From contig JBGTLG010000015.1 in NCBI GenBank assembly GCA_041744215.1, forward strand, positions 128,001-192,000: a stretch of DNA of 64,000 nt. Reading direction: 5' to 3'. This stretch comes from Fimbriimonadales bacterium (GTDB lineage: Bacteria; Armatimonadota; Fimbriimonadia; Fimbriimonadales; ATM1). Position numbers and translations under genes: made by a program. Numbering within the stretch: position 1 is the stretch's first letter; each line of letters begins with the position of its first letter. Under the pieces are notes generated by a model, which saw nothing but the letters and a program-made list of their open reading frames with translations, did not search any database and was not told the origin of the DNA. Below, piece by piece: positions 17,997-24,681 of this stretch.

Positions 17997-19301
17997 ATGC
18001 CCCACCGAGACCGCCAGCTCATTTCCGCGGTTCACCTCGCCACTAAGAAGCTATCAGCTACGACGAGCGTCGAGGAGACGCTCCGTGAAGTTTTGGAGAT
18101 TTGCGTCCAGGCGGTTGGGGCGTACGGAGGCACCATCTATATCCACGACCCGTCCGGTAGCGTTCTGGTGTTTCGTCACGTCCTGCCGGAGAGCGTTCGG
18201 GATTCTCTCCCTCCCGAGATCCCAGACACCTTTGGGATTGCCGGAGAGGTGTTCCAAACGGGCGTGCCCCAGATCGCCAGCGTGGAGGACCGAGGAGGCT
18301 CCTCCACCCCCTCCTCGGAGATCGAAGAAGCTACCGGGGTGCGAGTAACTTCGATGCTCACTGCCCCTCTTGCCGTCGCAGGTATGGACCCAATTGGCGT
18401 CGTTCAACTCCTTAACAAGGAAGGTGGCGAGTTTGAGGAGCGTGAGATCCAGATCATCGAAACCGTCTCGGCGGTGAGCGCGATGGCCTATTTGAACTCT
18501 GTGCTGACCGAGCAGTCGAATCGGGCGGCGAGTATGATCGGTATGGGTGCCGTAGGACATGACATCTACAACCTGGCCGCGGCGCTCAGGGGTGCTGCCC
18601 AGTTGATGGAGATGGCGGTTCAGCAGGTTGAGCAGGATCCCGAGGCAAGCGTCGAGGAGCTTAGGGAGTCGCTCCAAGACTTGATGTCCGGAGTTGAGAC
18701 GATCGTCGGGTACAGCGCGATCATCAATAAGCTCTCGAAGGGCGCAGCGATGACGCCGGAGAAGCGAGCAGGCGAGTTCAGCGAAGCCGTTCGCAAAGCG
18801 GCAGCCTACATTGAGGCAACCGCCAGAAGCGAGCACCAAATTGGCATTTGCTACCAGATTGAGCCTGACGGGCGCCAAAGTCTATTCGACAGTCATTACG
18901 TCAACAGAATCGTTCAAAACTTAGTCGGCAATGCGGTCAAGGCTACAGTTGAGTCGGTGGACTTAAGACAAGCACGCACTGTGCTGTACGAGGATGATCG
19001 CGGTCCAGTCTATGACGAGGTCATCATACGATACTCGCTGCGAGACGGCTGCCATGTTATCGAAGTCAAAGACAGTGGCATGGGAATGACCGAAGCTACA
19101 AAACGCAAGATTCTCGGGGGGACAGCAGGCAGCGGGTGGTCAAAGAGCGGGGGCACTGGCTGGGGTACCCGAACCGTCATCGAGCTAACCGCTGCGCATG
19201 GGGGCCGACTTGAAATCGAATCGACCCCGGGTGAGGGGAGCCTGTTTCGTGTCGTTCTTCCGCTGGAACCTGCATCGACCGAGGTAGCTGCACACGTATG
19301 A
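17997..19301 (+). CDS. GAF-domain sensor histidine kinase (cytoplasmic)
   Basis: GAF (GIAGEV, IGVVQLLNK), H-box GHDIYN, N-box QNLVGNAVKA, DSGMGM, GGTGWG. Confidence 0.88.
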   Translation: MPHRDRQLISAVHLATKKLSATTSVEETLREVLEICVQAVGAYGGTIYIHDPSGSVLVFRHVLPESVRDSLPPEIPDTFGIAGEVFQTGVPQIASVEDRGGSSTPSSEIEEATGVRVTSMLTAPLAVAGMDPIGVVQLLNKEGGEFEEREIQIIETVSAVSAMAYLNSVLTEQSNRAASMIGMGAVGHDIYNLAAALRGAAQLMEMAVQQVEQDPEASVEELRESLQDLMSGVETIVGYSAIINKLSKGAAMTPEKRAGEFSEAVRKAAAYIEATARSEHQIGICYQIEPDGRQSLFDSHYVNRIVQNLVGNAVKATVESVDLRQARTVLYEDDRGPVYDEVIIRYSLRDGCHVIEVKDSGMGMTEATKRKILGGTAGSGWSKSGGTGWGTRTVIELTAAHGGRLEIESTPGEGSLFRVVLPLEPASTEVAAHV

Positions 19302-20287
19302 ACATCTGGATGGATGCAGGAAACTACCAGCCCTCCAGGCGAAATCGATGGAAACGCGCAATTGGCGCTTTCCTGTACACGCTCGTTTGTATCTTTGCGC
19401 TTGGCCTCGGCTCTCTCCAAGGGTTGCGCTATTCCAACCCGCTCTTAGCTGAAGGGTTCATGCGCAAGGTGGTTCCCAGCTTTAGCGCTGATCCGTTCGC
19501 GGGACGCGACGAGATCGTAATCCTCGCTCTTGGTACTGACAAAGACTACGATGAACACAACCGCGTCGTGAGTTCGTCTGCTCGCGCTGATTCGATTCAG
19601 TTAGTGCGCCTGGACTTCGCGAACAACGCGATCGGTATCTTCGGGATCCCGCGAGATACCTACGTCGAGATACGCGGCTATAGGCCCATGAAGATCAATG
19701 AACTTCACAAATTCGGCGGCGGCGAGGCTGTTGCGCAAGCAGTCTATGAACTGGTAGGCATTCGTCCGGACAAGATCGTCGAAGTGGACTTCGACTTTGT
19801 GCGTCAGGCTGTGAATACTGTCGCAGGAGTGGAAATCTACATCAACAAGAGAATGAAGTACACAGACAGGAGCGGTAATCTATTCATCGACTTCCATCCG
19901 GGTCGCACAACACTCACAGGAGACCAAGCGCTAGGCTTCATTCGATACAGGCAAGACAGCGAAGTCGACCGCGGCAGACGCCAGCAAGACTTCCTAATAG
20001 CATTCAAAAGGCGCGTCTCCAAGAGTCCAGAGTACATCCCCGAACTCTCGAAGCTGATCATGGATACTCTTGACGACTACTTGACAGAACAAGAAGTGTT
20101 TAGCATCGCTGACTTTGCGAGGAGTGTTCCAACCGCAAAAGTTCGACACGGTACGCTCCCGGTAAGAGAAGGCCCGATGTATCCGAAGTTCTACTATTAT
20201 CCAATCCGTGAAGAAGTCGCGCAAGCGCTTGTCAATGCCGGAATGCGCGCCGGCTCAGCGACTGCTGGGTCGGTGTCCGTTCGGTGA
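19298..20287 (+). CDS. LytR-CpsA-Psr (LCP) family protein
   Basis: One TM; ILALGTD, RADSI, IPRDT, KIN, FIRYR, R.RRQQ. Confidence 0.9.
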   Translation: MNIWMDAGNYQPSRRNRWKRAIGAFLYTLVCIFALGLGSLQGLRYSNPLLAEGFMRKVVPSFSADPFAGRDEIVILALGTDKDYDEHNRVVSSSARADSIQLVRLDFANNAIGIFGIPRDTYVEIRGYRPMKINELHKFGGGEAVAQAVYELVGIRPDKIVEVDFDFVRQAVNTVAGVEIYINKRMKYTDRSGNLFIDFHPGRTTLTGDQALGFIRYRQDSEVDRGRRQQDFLIAFKRRVSKSPEYIPELSKLIMDTLDDYLTEQEVFSIADFARSVPTAKVRHGTLPVREGPMYPKFYYYPIREEVAQALVNAGMRAGSATAGSVSVR

Positions 20288-21099
20288 TACTTTTCTTTGC
20301 AATTGACGAAGAAGATCGCGATATCGAAAGGCGGTCATCAGAGCACGTACAACTCGGTAAGTTCTTTCTGCGGGGGGCAATCGCGTTTGCAATTCTGTTG
20401 CTCATTTTCACACCTGTCTATTTGAACTGTCGCCAGCAAATGCTTCGTGTAGTGACCCAAGAGAACCTTCGGACGCTCTTCCAGGGTGTGTCGCTTTACG
20501 CGGACGCGAACAACGAAGGACTTCCGCCGCTCTACGAGCGAGCAGGGCCGGAAATGCCGGTCATAGATCGAAATGGCAACCCAATCATTTGGGCAACCCA
20601 CGTGATGGGGTACGTCGAGGCGTACCGGCTTCGCAATCCTAAGACCCCGCAGGATTCGCAAGTTCGCCTTACTGTCTCCACTACGTCATCGGGATCGTCG
20701 ACAACATATCTCGGGTATGGGATGGCGTCTTCTCTTGATACGACGCGACTATACGACATCACCAACAAAGACTCTGTACTCTTCGCAGAAACAACCTCCG
20801 GCGGTCGAAATGGCAGCCTGAACCCCTTGCCTCTTGCATTCGCATCGGATGGCTTCATGATCGGCTTCGACGATACCAACCTGCCAGGCGCAGGCCCAAC
20901 GAGAGACTCGCAGTTTGCAACACGGTTGGCATTTTCAAGCCGAGGAGGAACCAACTCGATCAGCGATATGGAACCGCTGCACGAAGATGGGACCCTGGCG
21001 ATTTCTGCTGACGGGCGCATCCTCTACCTAAAGCCATCCGATCAAATCGTCCAAAAGGCCGGTACACTACCTACTGGTCTATGGGCGCCTTTTCGGTAA
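20284..21099 (+). CDS. Atypical pilin-like protein of the DUF1559/H-X9-DG group, lacking the GFTLIE site
   Basis: TM helix then PVY...R......ENLR.L..GV.LY..ANNE.LPP; C-terminal H-EDGTLAISA-DG. Confidence 0.6.
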   Translation: MILFFAIDEEDRDIERRSSEHVQLGKFFLRGAIAFAILLLIFTPVYLNCRQQMLRVVTQENLRTLFQGVSLYADANNEGLPPLYERAGPEMPVIDRNGNPIIWATHVMGYVEAYRLRNPKTPQDSQVRLTVSTTSSGSSTTYLGYGMASSLDTTRLYDITNKDSVLFAETTSGGRNGSLNPLPLAFASDGFMIGFDDTNLPGAGPTRDSQFATRLAFSSRGGTNSISDMEPLHEDGTLAISADGRILYLKPSDQIVQKAGTLPTGLWAPFR

Positions 21100-21800
21100 C
21101 TAACCAGGATCCGGGCTGGGTGAATGAGCTCGTGCGCGAGTATGCCGCGATCATAGGCGAAGATGTGCCTGCTGCCAACGGTCCAACAACGTTCGCCGTG
21201 GCCCGCGACGCGTGCCACGGCGCAGCAAAGCCGCCGCCACCTGAAAGGCTTGACATTCGAGAGTGCCGCATGGAGTGGCGATCCCATCGCATAGACGGCT
21301 CTGTCTCACCGGTCGGCCGAGTCGGTCAATTCGTTCCAGATTGCCCAGCAGACGAGACTCCACAGGTAGGCGCGCAGGTTAGACTCCGCCATGCAGACGG
21401 CGTCATGAAAGCGGTCGTTGTTGGGTATTGCGGGTCGGACGTGCTTTTGATGCGCGGGCCGACACAACGCGAACGCAGAGCCCACCAGCGCATTGGTGTC
21501 GCGGGCGTGGCCCTCGTTCGGTTCAACAGGTCCAATCAGGAAGCCAGAATAAGCGACCTGTCTGAGGGAGGGATTGGCCTCTCGTCGCCGATGGCCGTGG
21601 AGGTTGGGGGCTCGATCCACCTGTTGTTGCGCATCCACGGGAAGAAGGCGTTACCTCTTGAGTGCGACGGGATTGTAACTAGCTGCCGAGCCGTTGAGCG
21701 CGGACCACAAGGCGAACATCGCATCGGCGTAAAGTTCGTCGATCTATCGCCAAAGTTAGTTGACCGAATTCGATTGTTGCTACACGACGAGTGCTCGTAA
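21081..21800 (+). CDS. PilZ domain (c-di-GMP-binding) protein; start uncertain
   Basis: ERRAHQR (RxxxR), DLSEGG (DxSxxG), IGVKF. Confidence 0.8.
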   Translation: MGAFSVTNQDPGWVNELVREYAAIIGEDVPAANGPTTFAVARDACHGAAKPPPPERLDIRECRMEWRSHRIDGSVSPVGRVGQFVPDCPADETPQVGAQVRLRHADGVMKAVVVGYCGSDVLLMRGPTQRERRAHQRIGVAGVALVRFNRSNQEARISDLSEGGIGLSSPMAVEVGGSIHLLLRIHGKKALPLECDGIVTSCRAVERGPQGEHRIGVKFVDLSPKLVDRIRLLLHDECS

Positions 21801-21818: not shown

Positions 21819-23063
21819 ATGGCTAACTTGAAACGCGAATCCAGTCTGGCTGCCATGCTCGGGTTTGGTGTCTGGGTTCTCCTGGGAACCTTAGCAGTGT
21901 CGGGAATCGCGCTTGCAACACAGTACGCCCCGATCGCTGGTGGTGCCCACGCATCGGTTGTAGCGATGCGCGACAGCCCGGTGCACTCCTTTCTCTGTGA
22001 CTACCACTACTATGGGAGTGGTGTAGCGATTGCTCTCGCAGCTGTTAACCTGGCGTTTCTGCTCTGGGCCGGGAGATATGGCCGCCCGGATCGATGGCTG
22101 TGGTGGGGAGCGCTCGGAGCCTTGATCATAACAATGCTGGCGCAAGTAACCGGCAACCTTCTTCCATTCTCGCAGCATGACGTCCGCACGGCGTTCGCGG
22201 AAGGAGGCATCGCTGCCCAAACCCCGCTTATCGGACCCACGCTTCGAGCGATTGCGATAGGCGGGGAGGCCGTCGGCCAAGAGACTGTGGATAGATGGTA
22301 CTTCGCACACCGCTTTGTCGCCCCACTCCTGCTGGTTCTTCTTGCATTCCCCGCTATTCGCTCGCTCCGCAGGGAGGGATTAAAGTCAAAGCTGTGGTGG
22401 GCGATTCTTGTTCCTGCGGCCATCGCTGCAGCAGGCGCGCTCATCGTTTCTGGGCCGCTCGGCAACGCAGCGCTGCCCTCAGACCTCGCAACGGGCGCAA
22501 CGAGGCCTATGTGGTACGTGCTGCCGATGCATGCACTACTTGACACCTTGGGCGGAATCAATCCAAGCATGGGCTGGATAGGGGCGATGCTGGTGCCGGG
22601 CCTAGCGGTTACCGGTCTGATGATGCTTCCGATCCTTGTTCGTAAGTCCGCAGAGGGCGCGGCGTTCGGACGAATCGCTGTACTATTTGGGTCCGTTCTG
22701 CTCATCTTGGCAATCATCACGTATGGAGACCGGGTTCAAGGGCCTTTCGCGGACGAACCAACATTTGATGCCCCGCGAGCAGCGCCAGAGCCCACCCAGA
22801 CACCGAACCTGCCGCTCGCAGAACAAGGCAAGTTGATCTATGACGCAAACAAGTGTTCTAGCTGTCATGCCATCGGTGGCGCTGGTTCTGCGACAGCAGG
22901 ACCGAACCTCGCGGGAGTCGGCAGTCGGAGGCCGAATGTTGAAGAACTTATGGATCTCGTTCGTGATCCCCAGGCGTTCGGAATCCAAACGATGCCGGCA
23001 TACTCGGCGCTCAGCCTGAGCGAGCTGCGTGCGTTAGCCGAGTATTTGAGTTCGCTGAAGTGA
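21819..23063 (+). CDS. Cytochrome b/b6-like protein fused to a C-terminal monoheme cytochrome c
   Basis: SGIALA.QY.P, TGNLLPFSQ, RWYFAH, RPMWY (PEWY-like); CSSCH plus GPNL and distal MPAY. Confidence 0.88.
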   Translation: MANLKRESSLAAMLGFGVWVLLGTLAVSGIALATQYAPIAGGAHASVVAMRDSPVHSFLCDYHYYGSGVAIALAAVNLAFLLWAGRYGRPDRWLWWGALGALIITMLAQVTGNLLPFSQHDVRTAFAEGGIAAQTPLIGPTLRAIAIGGEAVGQETVDRWYFAHRFVAPLLLVLLAFPAIRSLRREGLKSKLWWAILVPAAIAAAGALIVSGPLGNAALPSDLATGATRPMWYVLPMHALLDTLGGINPSMGWIGAMLVPGLAVTGLMMLPILVRKSAEGAAFGRIAVLFGSVLLILAIITYGDRVQGPFADEPTFDAPRAAPEPTQTPNLPLAEQGKLIYDANKCSSCHAIGGAGSATAGPNLAGVGSRRPNVEELMDLVRDPQAFGIQTMPAYSALSLSELRALAEYLSSLK

Positions 23064-23071
23064 GAGGGAGT

Positions 23072-23147
23072 TGGCGCGCTCGAGAGGACTCGAACCTCCG
23101 ACCTACAGGTCCGCAACCTGTTGCTCTATCCACTGAGCTACGAGCGC
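23072..23147 (-). tRNA. tRNA-Arg, anticodon GCG
   Basis: GCGCTCG acceptor stem, D loop with A20, anticodon arm ACAGG-TTGCGGA-CCTGT, GGTTCGAGTCC T arm, encoded CCA. Confidence 0.96.
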
Positions 23148-23209: not shown

Positions 23210-23968
23210 ATGATTTCGAATTCGAACCCACGATCCTTCGCGGACCTAGTTGGATTTCCCGATTCACTGCGATCACCTACCTTAGGCGCGCACGACACCC
23301 ATGGAACTACGGTGCTTTGCCTTCGCTATAAGGACGGCATCTTGAACCTCGGCGATCGTCGGGCCACAGCGGCGAATTACATCATGTATGATCGCGCCAA
23401 GAAGATATTGCGACTGGACGATCACACGCTGGTTGCAATCTCGGGTTCATTCGCTCGCAGTACCGAGATTGCACGCTACTTGCGACATGCATTCAAATAC
23501 TATTCCCGGACGCAACTTCAGGACATGAGTGTTGAAGGCAAGTTGCAGGAAGTCAGCCGCGCCCTCGCCGGAAATCTAAGTATGTCGCTCGAAGGGATTG
23601 GCATCTTTCTCCCTATCGTTAGCGCGTACGATCCCGCGTCTGACTCGCTGGGCATTTACTTCTACGACGTAATGGGAGCGCGCTTCGAGAGCGGTCAATA
23701 CGGTTGCGCCGGCTCTGGCTCTCATCGGATACAGGGGGTCTTTGAGTACATACAGCGGCAGCAAGGAAACTTCGAGGAGCGAGAACTTGAAGAAGTGCTC
23801 TTGGATGGCCTGACTATGCTCGACATCGCTTCGGAGCTCGACTCTGCGACAGGGAATCTTTCGATGCCATTGCCTATCGCAAAGACTCTGACTAAGCACG
23901 GCATCGAGGACATCAACGAACAATTGCTTCGCGAATCCGTGTTGTCCGTTCAAAAGGGTAAGGGTTAG
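23210..23968 (+). CDS. prcB: 20S proteasome beta subunit
   Basis: Propeptide ending THG|TTVL (catalytic Thr1), GDRRAT, YD..G.R, GSGS, D.ATG. Confidence 0.92.
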   Translation: MISNSNPRSFADLVGFPDSLRSPTLGAHDTHGTTVLCLRYKDGILNLGDRRATAANYIMYDRAKKILRLDDHTLVAISGSFARSTEIARYLRHAFKYYSRTQLQDMSVEGKLQEVSRALAGNLSMSLEGIGIFLPIVSAYDPASDSLGIYFYDVMGARFESGQYGCAGSGSHRIQGVFEYIQRQQGNFEERELEEVLLDGLTMLDIASELDSATGNLSMPLPIAKTLTKHGIEDINEQLLRESVLSVQKGKG

Positions 23969-23973
23969 AATCT

Positions 23974-24681
23974 ATGTTGTCCCCTTATGATTGGCAAGAG
24001 AGCATAAGCCAACGCGCCCAGTACATTGAAAACCGCATCAAGAGCGGGTCGCCGATAGTGGGGCTATCCATTGATGCCGGCTGCATTTTGTACACGTATC
24101 GAAAGCACATTCGAAAAGTCTACGAAGTCTATGATCGCATGATGTTTTCAGCGATCGGTCAGCAGGCAGACGTCGAATCAATGCGCGTGACTTCGATCGA
24201 CTTTGCACACCAGGAAGGATTTGCACATAGTGAGGACGATGTGACCATCGGCCGACTTGTTGGTTTCGCCCTCAGCGGCCCCATGAAGCGTGCTTTCGGG
24301 GATCTCACCGTAGCTCCGTTTGTCATCCATGCGCTGTTCGCGGAGATGAACGCAAAACCAGCAGAAGACCTGTTCATTTGGCTGCACTATGACGGGGATT
24401 TCGTCGCACACAGGCAGTTCGCAGTTGCCGCTGGCACGCGCGATTCCGAGAAGCGGATGGTCGAGTTTTTGTCAAGTGCGTATCGTCCCGACTTGTCGGT
24501 GGAAGAGGCTTTCGGAATTGCTGACCAAGCATGGCGCATCGGAGCCGATCGCGATGTTGACGGTGTCCCGGATGAGGAACTCCTGTCGGATGCCTTCCCC
24601 GAGATCGGTTTTCTTGAGCGAAACGTTGAACGCGTGCGCAGATTTCGTCTCATTCAGCAGGATTCGAAGCACTCCAGGTAG
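23974..24681 (+). CDS. prcA: 20S proteasome alpha subunit
   Basis: SPYDW, KVYEVYDR, AIG...D.E..R, G...S..DVT, YDG, R.FR; directly follows prcB. Confidence 0.9.
   Translation: MLSPYDWQESISQRAQYIENRIKSGSPIVGLSIDAGCILYTYRKHIRKVYEVYDRMMFSAIGQQADVESMRVTSIDFAHQEGFAHSEDDVTIGRLVGFALSGPMKRAFGDLTVAPFVIHALFAEMNAKPAEDLFIWLHYDGDFVAHRQFAVAAGTRDSEKRMVEFLSSAYRPDLSVEEAFGIADQAWRIGADRDVDGVPDEELLSDAFPEIGFLERNVERVRRFRLIQQDSKHSR

Follow-up and report, generated by a model that had tools for sequence, protein, structure and literature searches.

The window analysed here is a stretch of 64,000 nucleotides from a Fimbriimonadales bacterium (assembly GCA_041744215.1, contig JBGTLG010000015.1, positions 128,001 to 192,000 of the forward strand), and our subject is one of its genes, which encodes a fusion of a cytochrome b with a cytochrome c (Table 1). 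The open reading frame (ORF) starts with ATG, ends with TGA and is intact over its 414 codons, and its product consists of a seven-helix cytochrome b to which a monohaem cytochrome c is joined at the C-terminus. For the b part, the Pfam models Cytochrom_B_N_2 (PF13631; 54.8 bits, cut-off 27) and Cytochrome_B (PF00033; 41.4 bits, cut-off 27.2) score above their cut-offs, as do Cytochrom_C (PF00034; 42.3 bits, cut-off 21.3) and PF13442 (37.9 bits) for the c part. Cytochrom_B_C (PF00032) stays below threshold with 19.0 bits against 20.7, and the PEWY motif of this region reads PMWY. No NCBIfam model reaches its cut-off: the best one, cytb_ExtP (NF040969), scores 75.1 bits against 290, and cytochrome b6 (NF002990) scores 66 bits against 325. 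The AlphaFold2 (AF2) model of the 414-residue protein is a confident one, with a predicted local distance difference test (pLDDT) value of 87.4 and a predicted template modelling (pTM) score of 0.84, and Foldseek ranks cytochrome b chains from bc1 complexes highest among its PDB matches. By fold and by profile, the protein is clearly a member of the cytochrome b superfamily.

The haem b ligands were located by a residue-level phmmer alignment to cytochrome b6 of solved b6f complexes (chain 1vf5_A). His63 aligns with the first histidine of helix B in b6 and Asn77 with the second; likewise, His164 aligns with the first histidine of helix D and Ala179 with the second. The first histidine pair of helices B and D we take to be the ligands of the haem termed bp or bL, and the second pair those of bn or bH. 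Only His63 and His164 are thus left of the four histidines that bind the two b haems. The alignment ranges equate His63 with His97 and His164 with His198 of Rhodobacter capsulatus cytochrome b. This equivalence brings our bL assignment into agreement with the model of the quinol oxidation (Qo) site of that organism, where, according to the accessible text, His97 and His198 lie beside haem bL (PMC10583091). A preliminary description of the gene, made from its letters alone, had noted that His63 and His164 are kept, with Asn77 and Pro178/Ala179 in the places of the other pair, and had proposed an alignment with PetB/QcrB-type proteins; the codons and the b6 alignment bear the observation out, and the proposed comparison, run against b6 chains, upheld the double loss of bH ligands. 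PMWY for PEWY and the fused CSSCH...M cytochrome c are equally real at the codon level. In the 121 clusters of the family delimited below, C346, C349 and H350 are conserved to 100% and M392 to 99%.

Table 1. Features of the cytochrome b-c fusion gene and of its neighbours, in window positions
Feature	Position	Strand	Basis or remark
Whole gene, cytochrome b-c fusion	21819..23063	+	ORF, Pfam, AF2 model, Foldseek
Cytochrome b N-terminal four-helix domain, residues 14-180	21858..22358	+	PF00033, PF13631; b6 alignment
H63, helix B, haem bL ligand	22005-22007 (CAC)	+	b6 alignment
N77, place of the helix-B haem bH ligand	22047-22049 (AAC)	+	b6 alignment
cd1-helix segment H120-D-V-R-T124-A-F-A-E128, former Qo pocket lining	22176..22202	+	family conservation, R. 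capsulatus alignment
H164, helix D, haem bL ligand	22308-22310 (CAC)	+	b6 alignment
P178-A179, place of the helix-D haem bH ligand	22350-22355	+	b6 alignment
ef-loop P230-M-W-Y-V-L-P-M-H238	22506..22532 (P-M-W-Y 22506-22517)	+	PEWY without Glu, family-defining His238
Cytochrome c domain, residues 334-414	22818..23060	+	PF00034, PF13442
C346-S-S-C349-H350, haem c attachment	22854-22868	+	codons checked
M392, haem c distal ligand	22992-22994	+	codons checked
GAF + HATPase_c kinase-like protein, first conserved gene of the cluster	17997..19301	+	Pfam
LytR_cpsA_psr (LCP) protein, 4-nt overlaps with its neighbours	19298..20287	+	Pfam
271-residue conserved protein, no Pfam family	20284..21099	+	upstream in 8/10 loci
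PilZ-domain protein, 18-nt gap to the cytochrome gene	21081..21800	+	Pfam; upstream in 5/10 loci
tRNA-Arg (GCG), ends the cluster on the opposite strand	23072..23147	-	tRNA call

A word-indexed search returned 18 full-length homologues with 35-53% identity (P0002-P0019 in our numbering), all of which are devoid of both bH histidines. The nearest is only about 52-53% identical, and the named ones among them are Armatimonadetes or Fimbriimonadales. Longer and more distant b-c fusions in the same alignment retain the bH histidines; alignment A1 comprised 24 of the 30 homologue matches (P0023, P0025, P0026, P0028, P0029 and P0030 were excluded). A 19-sequence profile searched against 1.84 billion representatives gave 14,340 matches at E ≤ 0.001, of which 549 were at E ≤ 1e-30; the top 150 sequences were retrieved. 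Together, 174 proteins were aligned to the profile, and all counts refer to the 156 that span both haem regions. Defined by a length below 480 residues and by His238, which is therefore a delimiting criterion and not a result, the family makes up 121 of these 156 clusters and, at 50% identity, has at least 121 clusters.

Across these clusters the bL ligand of helix B (position 63) is a histidine in 119 of 121, and that of helix D (position 164) in 118. At the bH place of helix B (position 77), a histidine is found in 26 of the 121 clusters and in none of the 19 closest sequences; at the bH place of helix D (position 179) it is found in none of the 121. The 47 canonical relatives have this histidine at position 179 in 32 cases and at position 178 in six. 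The glycines of helices A and C divide in the same way: those on the bH side (positions 15 and 98) are present in 46 and 45 of the 47 canonical relatives, but in only 20 and 16 of 119 family members, whereas those on the bL side (positions 29 and 112) are found in all 47 canonical relatives and in 111 and 119 of the 119 family members, respectively. At position 80, close to the bH histidine, 39 of the 47 canonical relatives have Arg or Gln, where the family has a hydrophobic residue. The loop between helices D and E (DE loop) is long in canonical forms and has about seven residues here. Of the features that go with haem bH and the quinone reduction (Qi) site, our protein has thus lost both ligands, both bH-side glycines, the Arg/Gln of position 80 and most of the DE loop.

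All 36 positions with at least 90% identity across the 121 clusters lie in periplasmic helix halves, in the cd and ef loops, in helix F or in the c domain, and none of them in a cytoplasmic helix half. Mean conservation is 0.23-0.38 in the five cytoplasmic-side helix halves and loops, versus 0.48-0.56 in the periplasmic-side segments except for the AB loop (0.38). What the sequences show is a family that has lost the bH niche, retains those of bL and haem c, and is conserved on the periplasmic side only. The family counts, taken together with this periplasmic conservation, point to a loss of bH that is old and shared, with strong purifying selection acting on the other half of the protein. The preliminary description had raised the question whether homologues have the double loss in common and had supposed that it was selected rather than a product of random decay. 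All 18 of the closest homologues do share it, and since the loss is family-wide, it is not the mark of a single copy under relaxed selection; selection also fits a large family that has lost the bH niche but conserves the haem c site, the bL site and a polar Qo pocket.

Two side observations concern single members. In the protein of locus L017 (genome G156) and in cluster P0057, a glutamine replaces the bL ligand His63. In genome G138 (locus L034, C1:2780080-2781269), the family gene lies in two adjacent pieces that cover profile positions 10-209 and 210-411 in different frames, which suggests a frameshift or an assembly error.

The former Qo pocket has a composition of its own. Eight residues, Q109, H120, T124, E128, W160, D222, P236 and H238, are family-specific and 91-100% conserved (H120 in 111 of 121 clusters, T124 in 94% and E128 in 100%); the residues of canonical relatives at the respective positions are A/G, K/R, A/G, G and F, then two that vary, and F/Y. 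With LP-x-x-Q as anchor, the alignment ranges place H120 at M154 of R. capsulatus, directly after PWGQ; with PxWY as anchor, H238 (P230+8) falls on Y302 (P294+8). The yeast and bovine equivalents of M154 and Y302 are presumably M139 and Y279. As far as the accessible text of the R. capsulatus study goes, M154 and Y302 both belong to an 18-residue first shell in a model around quinol, haem bL and the Rieske cluster, and the exchange M154T restores proton exit in a mutant without E295 and H276 (PMC10583091). E128 and H238 occur together in 124 sequences. Of these, 103 have no acidic residue at the second position of PEWY, and every one of them has H120, which is found in only 8 of the 21 that keep E or D there. 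This pattern suggests that the proton-accepting role has been handed over and that the pocket is still used for quinol chemistry; the Qo pocket would accordingly appear re-wired rather than decayed.

The Rieske partner is missing as well. We scanned loci of the phylum for ORFs with Rieske motifs, and in the 23 loci whose protein has H120 (L006-L014 and L016-L029, of which L012 and L016 belong to one genome; flanks of 1.5-6 kb) none was found. A full-length cytochrome b was also encoded at 14 further loci of the phylum. Of these, 13 have a same-strand Rieske gene that overlaps the cytochrome gene or lies adjacent to it (L030-L033, L035-L040, L042-L044), the sole exception being L041, and none of these 13 encodes a histidine at position 120. 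Our own locus has no Rieske-motif ORF nearby. The preliminary description, which had listed PilZ and a tRNA as neighbours and no adjacent Rieske gene, was correct in this respect; the two Rieske-domain matches of the genome are on other contigs. With neither a linked Rieske subunit nor the features of haem bH and the Qi site, the protein departs from what defines a Rieske/cytochrome b complex.

The Rieske-linked loci allow a comparison within the phylum. Canonical Armatimonadota b-c fusions (L030-L033, L035, L036; P0020-P0022) share with our protein helices A to G, the PxWY loop, the C-terminal monohaem cytochrome c and the same bL histidines and glycines. Unlike it, they keep both bH histidines and the bH-side glycines, have K/R120, G128 and F/Y238, a long DE loop and a total length of 450-620 residues, and are accompanied by an overlapping or adjacent Rieske gene. 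A further group, f27 (L038-L040, P0129), resembles our protein in the absence of both bH histidines and in the presence of Q109, T124, E128, W160, P236 and H238. Its members L038-L040 differ in that the Glu of PEWY is kept (AEWY), position 120 is S or N, the DE loop is long (about 470 residues in total) and a Rieske gene overlaps or adjoins. They would apparently form a Rieske/cytochrome b complex that is unable to run a Q cycle. In the three genomes concerned (G289, G294 and G268), L038, L039 and L040 are the sole cytochrome b matches at the threshold used.

In a FastTree phylogeny of the b domain, rooted at the midpoint, which does not establish the root, L038-L040 take a place intermediate between the short family and the canonical clade. 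Early-branching forms, like the Rieske-linked ones, possess E128 and H238 but not H120. The likely order of events, as read from these sequences, is that bH was lost and E128 and H238 were gained, that H120 was gained next, and that the Rieske gene, the DE loop and the acid of PEWY were lost thereafter. As a separate case, the Rieske-linked cytochrome b of L037 (genome G061) has Tyr77 and no histidine in the cytoplasmic half of helix D, together with a canonical Qo pocket (K120, F238). Its sister L036 retains the bH ligands, and L037 may represent an independent loss.

With regard to taxonomic range, full-length matches of at least 278 bits among 301 sampled genomes of the phylum were obtained only in the family to which the window's organism belongs (in both of two genomes, plus its own) and in a sister family of the same order (12 of 31). 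Of 20 distant clusters that we looked up, the three with a name were assigned to Armatimonadetes/Armatimonadota, to Fimbriimonadia and to "bacterium". A 404-residue b-c cluster retrieved as an Atlas match is commonest in Acidobacteriota.

The genome (2.68 Mb, 93% complete) offers further context for the respiratory role of the protein. Our gene is its sole PF00033 match, and the canonical bc complex that the preliminary description suggested looking for was not detected elsewhere in this 93% complete genome by PF00033 and Rieske-domain searches. On contig C41 (about 111.9-124.1 kb) we found an operon resembling that of alternative complex III (ACIII), which encodes a 216-residue pentahaem cytochrome c, a 1033-residue protein, a 470-residue NrfD-type protein, a 184-residue protein, a 211-residue monohaem cytochrome c and a 441-residue protein. 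Next to it come the genes of a caa3-type oxidase, subunit II of which carries CxxCH. Within this cluster NrfD and COX1 were scored by search, and the other names were read from sizes and CxxCH counts. An NrfD-type gene lies within 5-7 kb of COX1 in all five relatives checked, and the idea that the bH-less forms are the sole route from quinol to cytochrome c fails on this account. Several members of the same order have, besides a bH-less copy, an operon of a canonical cytochrome b with a Rieske protein, a large Fe-S protein and NarK-like genes (L045-L048); the genome studied here is without this cytochrome b/Rieske/large Fe-S operon. Among public sequencing runs we found no RNA run; a single study contributed four DNA runs (three under the label hot-springs metagenome, one under biofilm metagenome), one of which may be the source.

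We propose that the family comprises conserved Armatimonadota b-c fusions of about 410 residues that have probably given up haem bH, the Qi/DE-loop segment and the Rieske partner. With even confidence, we favour the reading that our protein holds one b haem (bL) and one c haem and exchanges electrons between quinol and haem c at the periplasmic face without a Q cycle. Quinol would bind in a self-contained, re-wired pocket of the Qo type, in which H120, E128 and H238 would accept protons in place of the PEWY glutamate and the Rieske histidine of canonical complexes. The membrane quinol would hand its electrons to the haem c fused on the periplasmic side, and haem bL could do no more than store one electron close by, to be returned via the quinone/semiquinone couple. 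The outcome would be quinol oxidation and scalar proton release, with neither a Q cycle nor charge transfer across the membrane, and the protein would work beside the ACIII-caa3 chain without replacing it. The preliminary description had likewise put forward a transfer between quinol and haem c without a Q cycle, or else a redox sensor, but had missed H120, E128 and H238 in the Qo pocket and the Rieske gene that accompanies some bH-less forms.

Several points weigh against this proposal. If haem bL is a dead end, turnover needs a short-circuit of the kind that is forbidden in bc1, i.e. unorthodox chemistry. H238 is no simple substitute for the Rieske histidine, because E128 and H238 are already present in the Rieske-linked L038-L040. 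The covariation of H120 with the PEWY acid may reflect only a few evolutionary events, perhaps one or two, and the placement of H120, E128, H238 and haem c relative to bL is taken from R. capsulatus and b6 alignment numbering. Nor is haem bL universal in the family, since position 63 is Gln in 2 of the 121 clusters and position 164 is not His in three; these members may bind no b haem or ligate it differently. Finally, no respiratory gap demands the enzyme, as ACIII stands beside the oxidase in this genome and in all five relatives.

The gene neighbourhood opens another possibility. In the window, topA and the genes for the GAF-HATPase protein, the LCP protein, the 271-residue protein, the PilZ protein and the cytochrome follow each other on the same strand, with overlaps of 4-19 nt and gaps of 18-24 nt. 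The block of GAF-kinase, LCP and 271-residue protein genes precedes the cytochrome gene, which is the last of the cluster, in 8 of 10 loci; PilZ is found in 5 of 10. The PilZ protein has intact motifs for binding cyclic diguanylate (c-di-GMP), i.e. RxxxR (residues 133-137) and DxSxxG (159-164). The 271-residue protein is characterised by DEEDRDxERR near the N-terminus, a single hydrophobic helix, the stretch NLxxL...LYAxxNDDGLPP, which by reading appears pseudopilin-like, and an invariant His233. The protein could therefore be a redox sensor or regulator whose bL/c module senses the redox state of the quinone pool or of the periplasm and signals to the GAF kinase and PilZ, thereby controlling the envelope through LCP. 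The conserved and tightly packed cluster speaks for such a role, as do the PilZ motifs and the fact that transfer from quinol to cytochrome c is already covered by ACIII. We nevertheless consider it unlikely: no part of the protein is less conserved than its cytoplasmic face, the docking surface that the kinase or PilZ would need, and members of the sister family f2 (L018-L029, L051, L052) are found amid unrelated genes. Moreover, topA belongs to the conserved block at three loci, so that the linkage may in part be inherited gene order; whether by regulation or by such inheritance, either may account for the cluster. A complex prediction for the b-c protein with its two haems and the 271-residue protein scored 0.00 against a mark of 0.32 and, being made without controls, provides no evidence either way. 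The term "stand-alone", used in the preliminary description, does not hold for our gene, given its position at the end of a cluster; it is appropriate for other members, with L051 and L052 lying alone.

Beyond the tRNA gene, at 23210-24681 (+), the window contains two adjacent genes with Proteasome-subunit domains (252 and 235 residues), which also occur in the closest locus (L006). They are a bacterial proteasome-like pair.

The two histidines of the Qo pocket could alternatively hold a new redox centre: H120 and H238, perhaps joined by E128, would ligate either a mononuclear metal or a third haem. In that case the protein would be a pure electron wire that links haem c and haem bL through the new centre and has no quinol site there, and the centre would stand in for the Rieske cluster that was lost. 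In favour of this idea, the pocket, which canonical proteins keep hydrophobic, here contains a glutamate that never varies and two histidines that hardly do; also in line with it is the position of both histidines at first-shell places of the Qo site in the accessible text of the R. capsulatus study (PMC10583091). The appearance of H120 where the PEWY acid is lost, however, fits a hand-over of the proton-accepting role better than a pair of ligands, and the early-branching and Rieske-linked forms, having H238 and E128 without H120, offer no bis-histidine site. We thus regard a new centre as quite improbable.

Equally doubtful is a degenerate Rieske/cytochrome b complex that would recruit its Rieske subunit in trans. 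The bH-less L038-L040 do keep an adjacent Rieske gene. Of the two Rieske-domain genes in our genome, one is a 359-residue ORF that we take to encode an oxygenase-like protein, and the other encodes a small protein of 165 residues with a twin-arginine translocation (Tat) signal and CTHLSC/CPCH boxes. The latter gene, on contig C26 (locus L002, about 43.9-51.2 kb), sits in an operon with genes for a 199-residue 4Fe-4S dicluster protein and an 88-residue membrane protein, divergent from a 345-residue multi-His membrane protein without a Pfam match and beside a pair of genes for NarK-like transporters; genes for a molybdopterin subunit or a cytochrome b are absent from the vicinity. Over its cluster domain, the Rieske protein shares only 30-38% identity with those that are bc-linked in the phylum. 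This other gene context, the low identity and the lack of a linked Rieske-motif ORF in all 23 family loci make it an unlikely candidate for the lost partner.

A haem bH retained by unconventional ligands would give the protein two b haems and some transmembrane electron transfer. The helix-B histidine of 26 clusters points in this direction, and some histidine occurs within positions 171-187 in 12 of the 121 clusters, in three of them four residues past position 179 (P0043, P0048 and P0074). In the clade of our protein, however, the cytoplasmic halves of helices A-D have, in the 19-sequence alignment, no conserved His, Met, Lys or Cys that could serve as an alternative ligand at the bH site, and the bH-side glycines, the Arg/Gln of position 80 and the long DE loop are lost as well. 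We consider this reading very improbable. Lastly, a non-functional, decaying remnant of a bc complex, to which the loss of canonical ligands and partner and the presence of ACIII might point, is extremely unlikely in view of the intact frame, at least 121 clusters, 36 highly conserved positions and new invariant residues.

To our knowledge, cytochrome b is usually treated as invariably a two-haem protein. Here, a large natural clade under purifying selection retains only the bL/Qo side, and the Rieske-linked bH-less form, together with canonical relatives in the same phylum, suggests a stepwise dismantling of the Q cycle. If quinol is indeed oxidised, the family would constitute a natural experiment on a Qo site whose low-potential chain ends at haem bL, with a bearing on short-circuits, semiquinone handling and the avoidance of reactive oxygen, and it would represent a minimal quinol:cytochrome c module on a single polypeptide. 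In the full-text literature, which excludes subscription-only papers such as a 2013 phylogenomic survey, we found no description of a Rieske-less, bL-only b-c fusion family.

Some known systems come close to it in one respect or another. In cytochrome b of Pyrobaculum, the bH histidine of helix D is systematically absent, which was taken as suggesting that haem bH is missing (PMC4122944, Kao and Hunte 2014). This loss is shared with our family, whereas the Pyrobaculum protein is archaeal, has no cytochrome c fusion and, in the accessible part of that paper, is reported to have lost a single ligand. According to the same part, the underlying survey of Qo motifs dropped all other sequences lacking any of the four histidines, a filter by which a family like ours was excluded by design. 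The cyanobacterial b6 subfamily K (PMC5600118, Dibrova et al. 2017) is similar in that a haem histidine of helix 2 is replaced and the bn-side glycine of helix 1 is absent; its function and haem number are called obscure in the accessible text. It differs in being a short four-helix protein of the b6 type, without fused subunit IV or cytochrome c, in having E or Q as the replacement and in belonging to another phylum. The accessible portions of both evolutionary surveys (PMC4122944 and PMC5600118) make no mention of Armatimonadetes. ACIII, which is present in the same genome, is likewise a quinol:cytochrome c oxidoreductase that operates without a Q cycle, but it is not homologous to our protein and consists of an NrfD-type membrane subunit with multihaem cytochrome c and Fe-S subunits.

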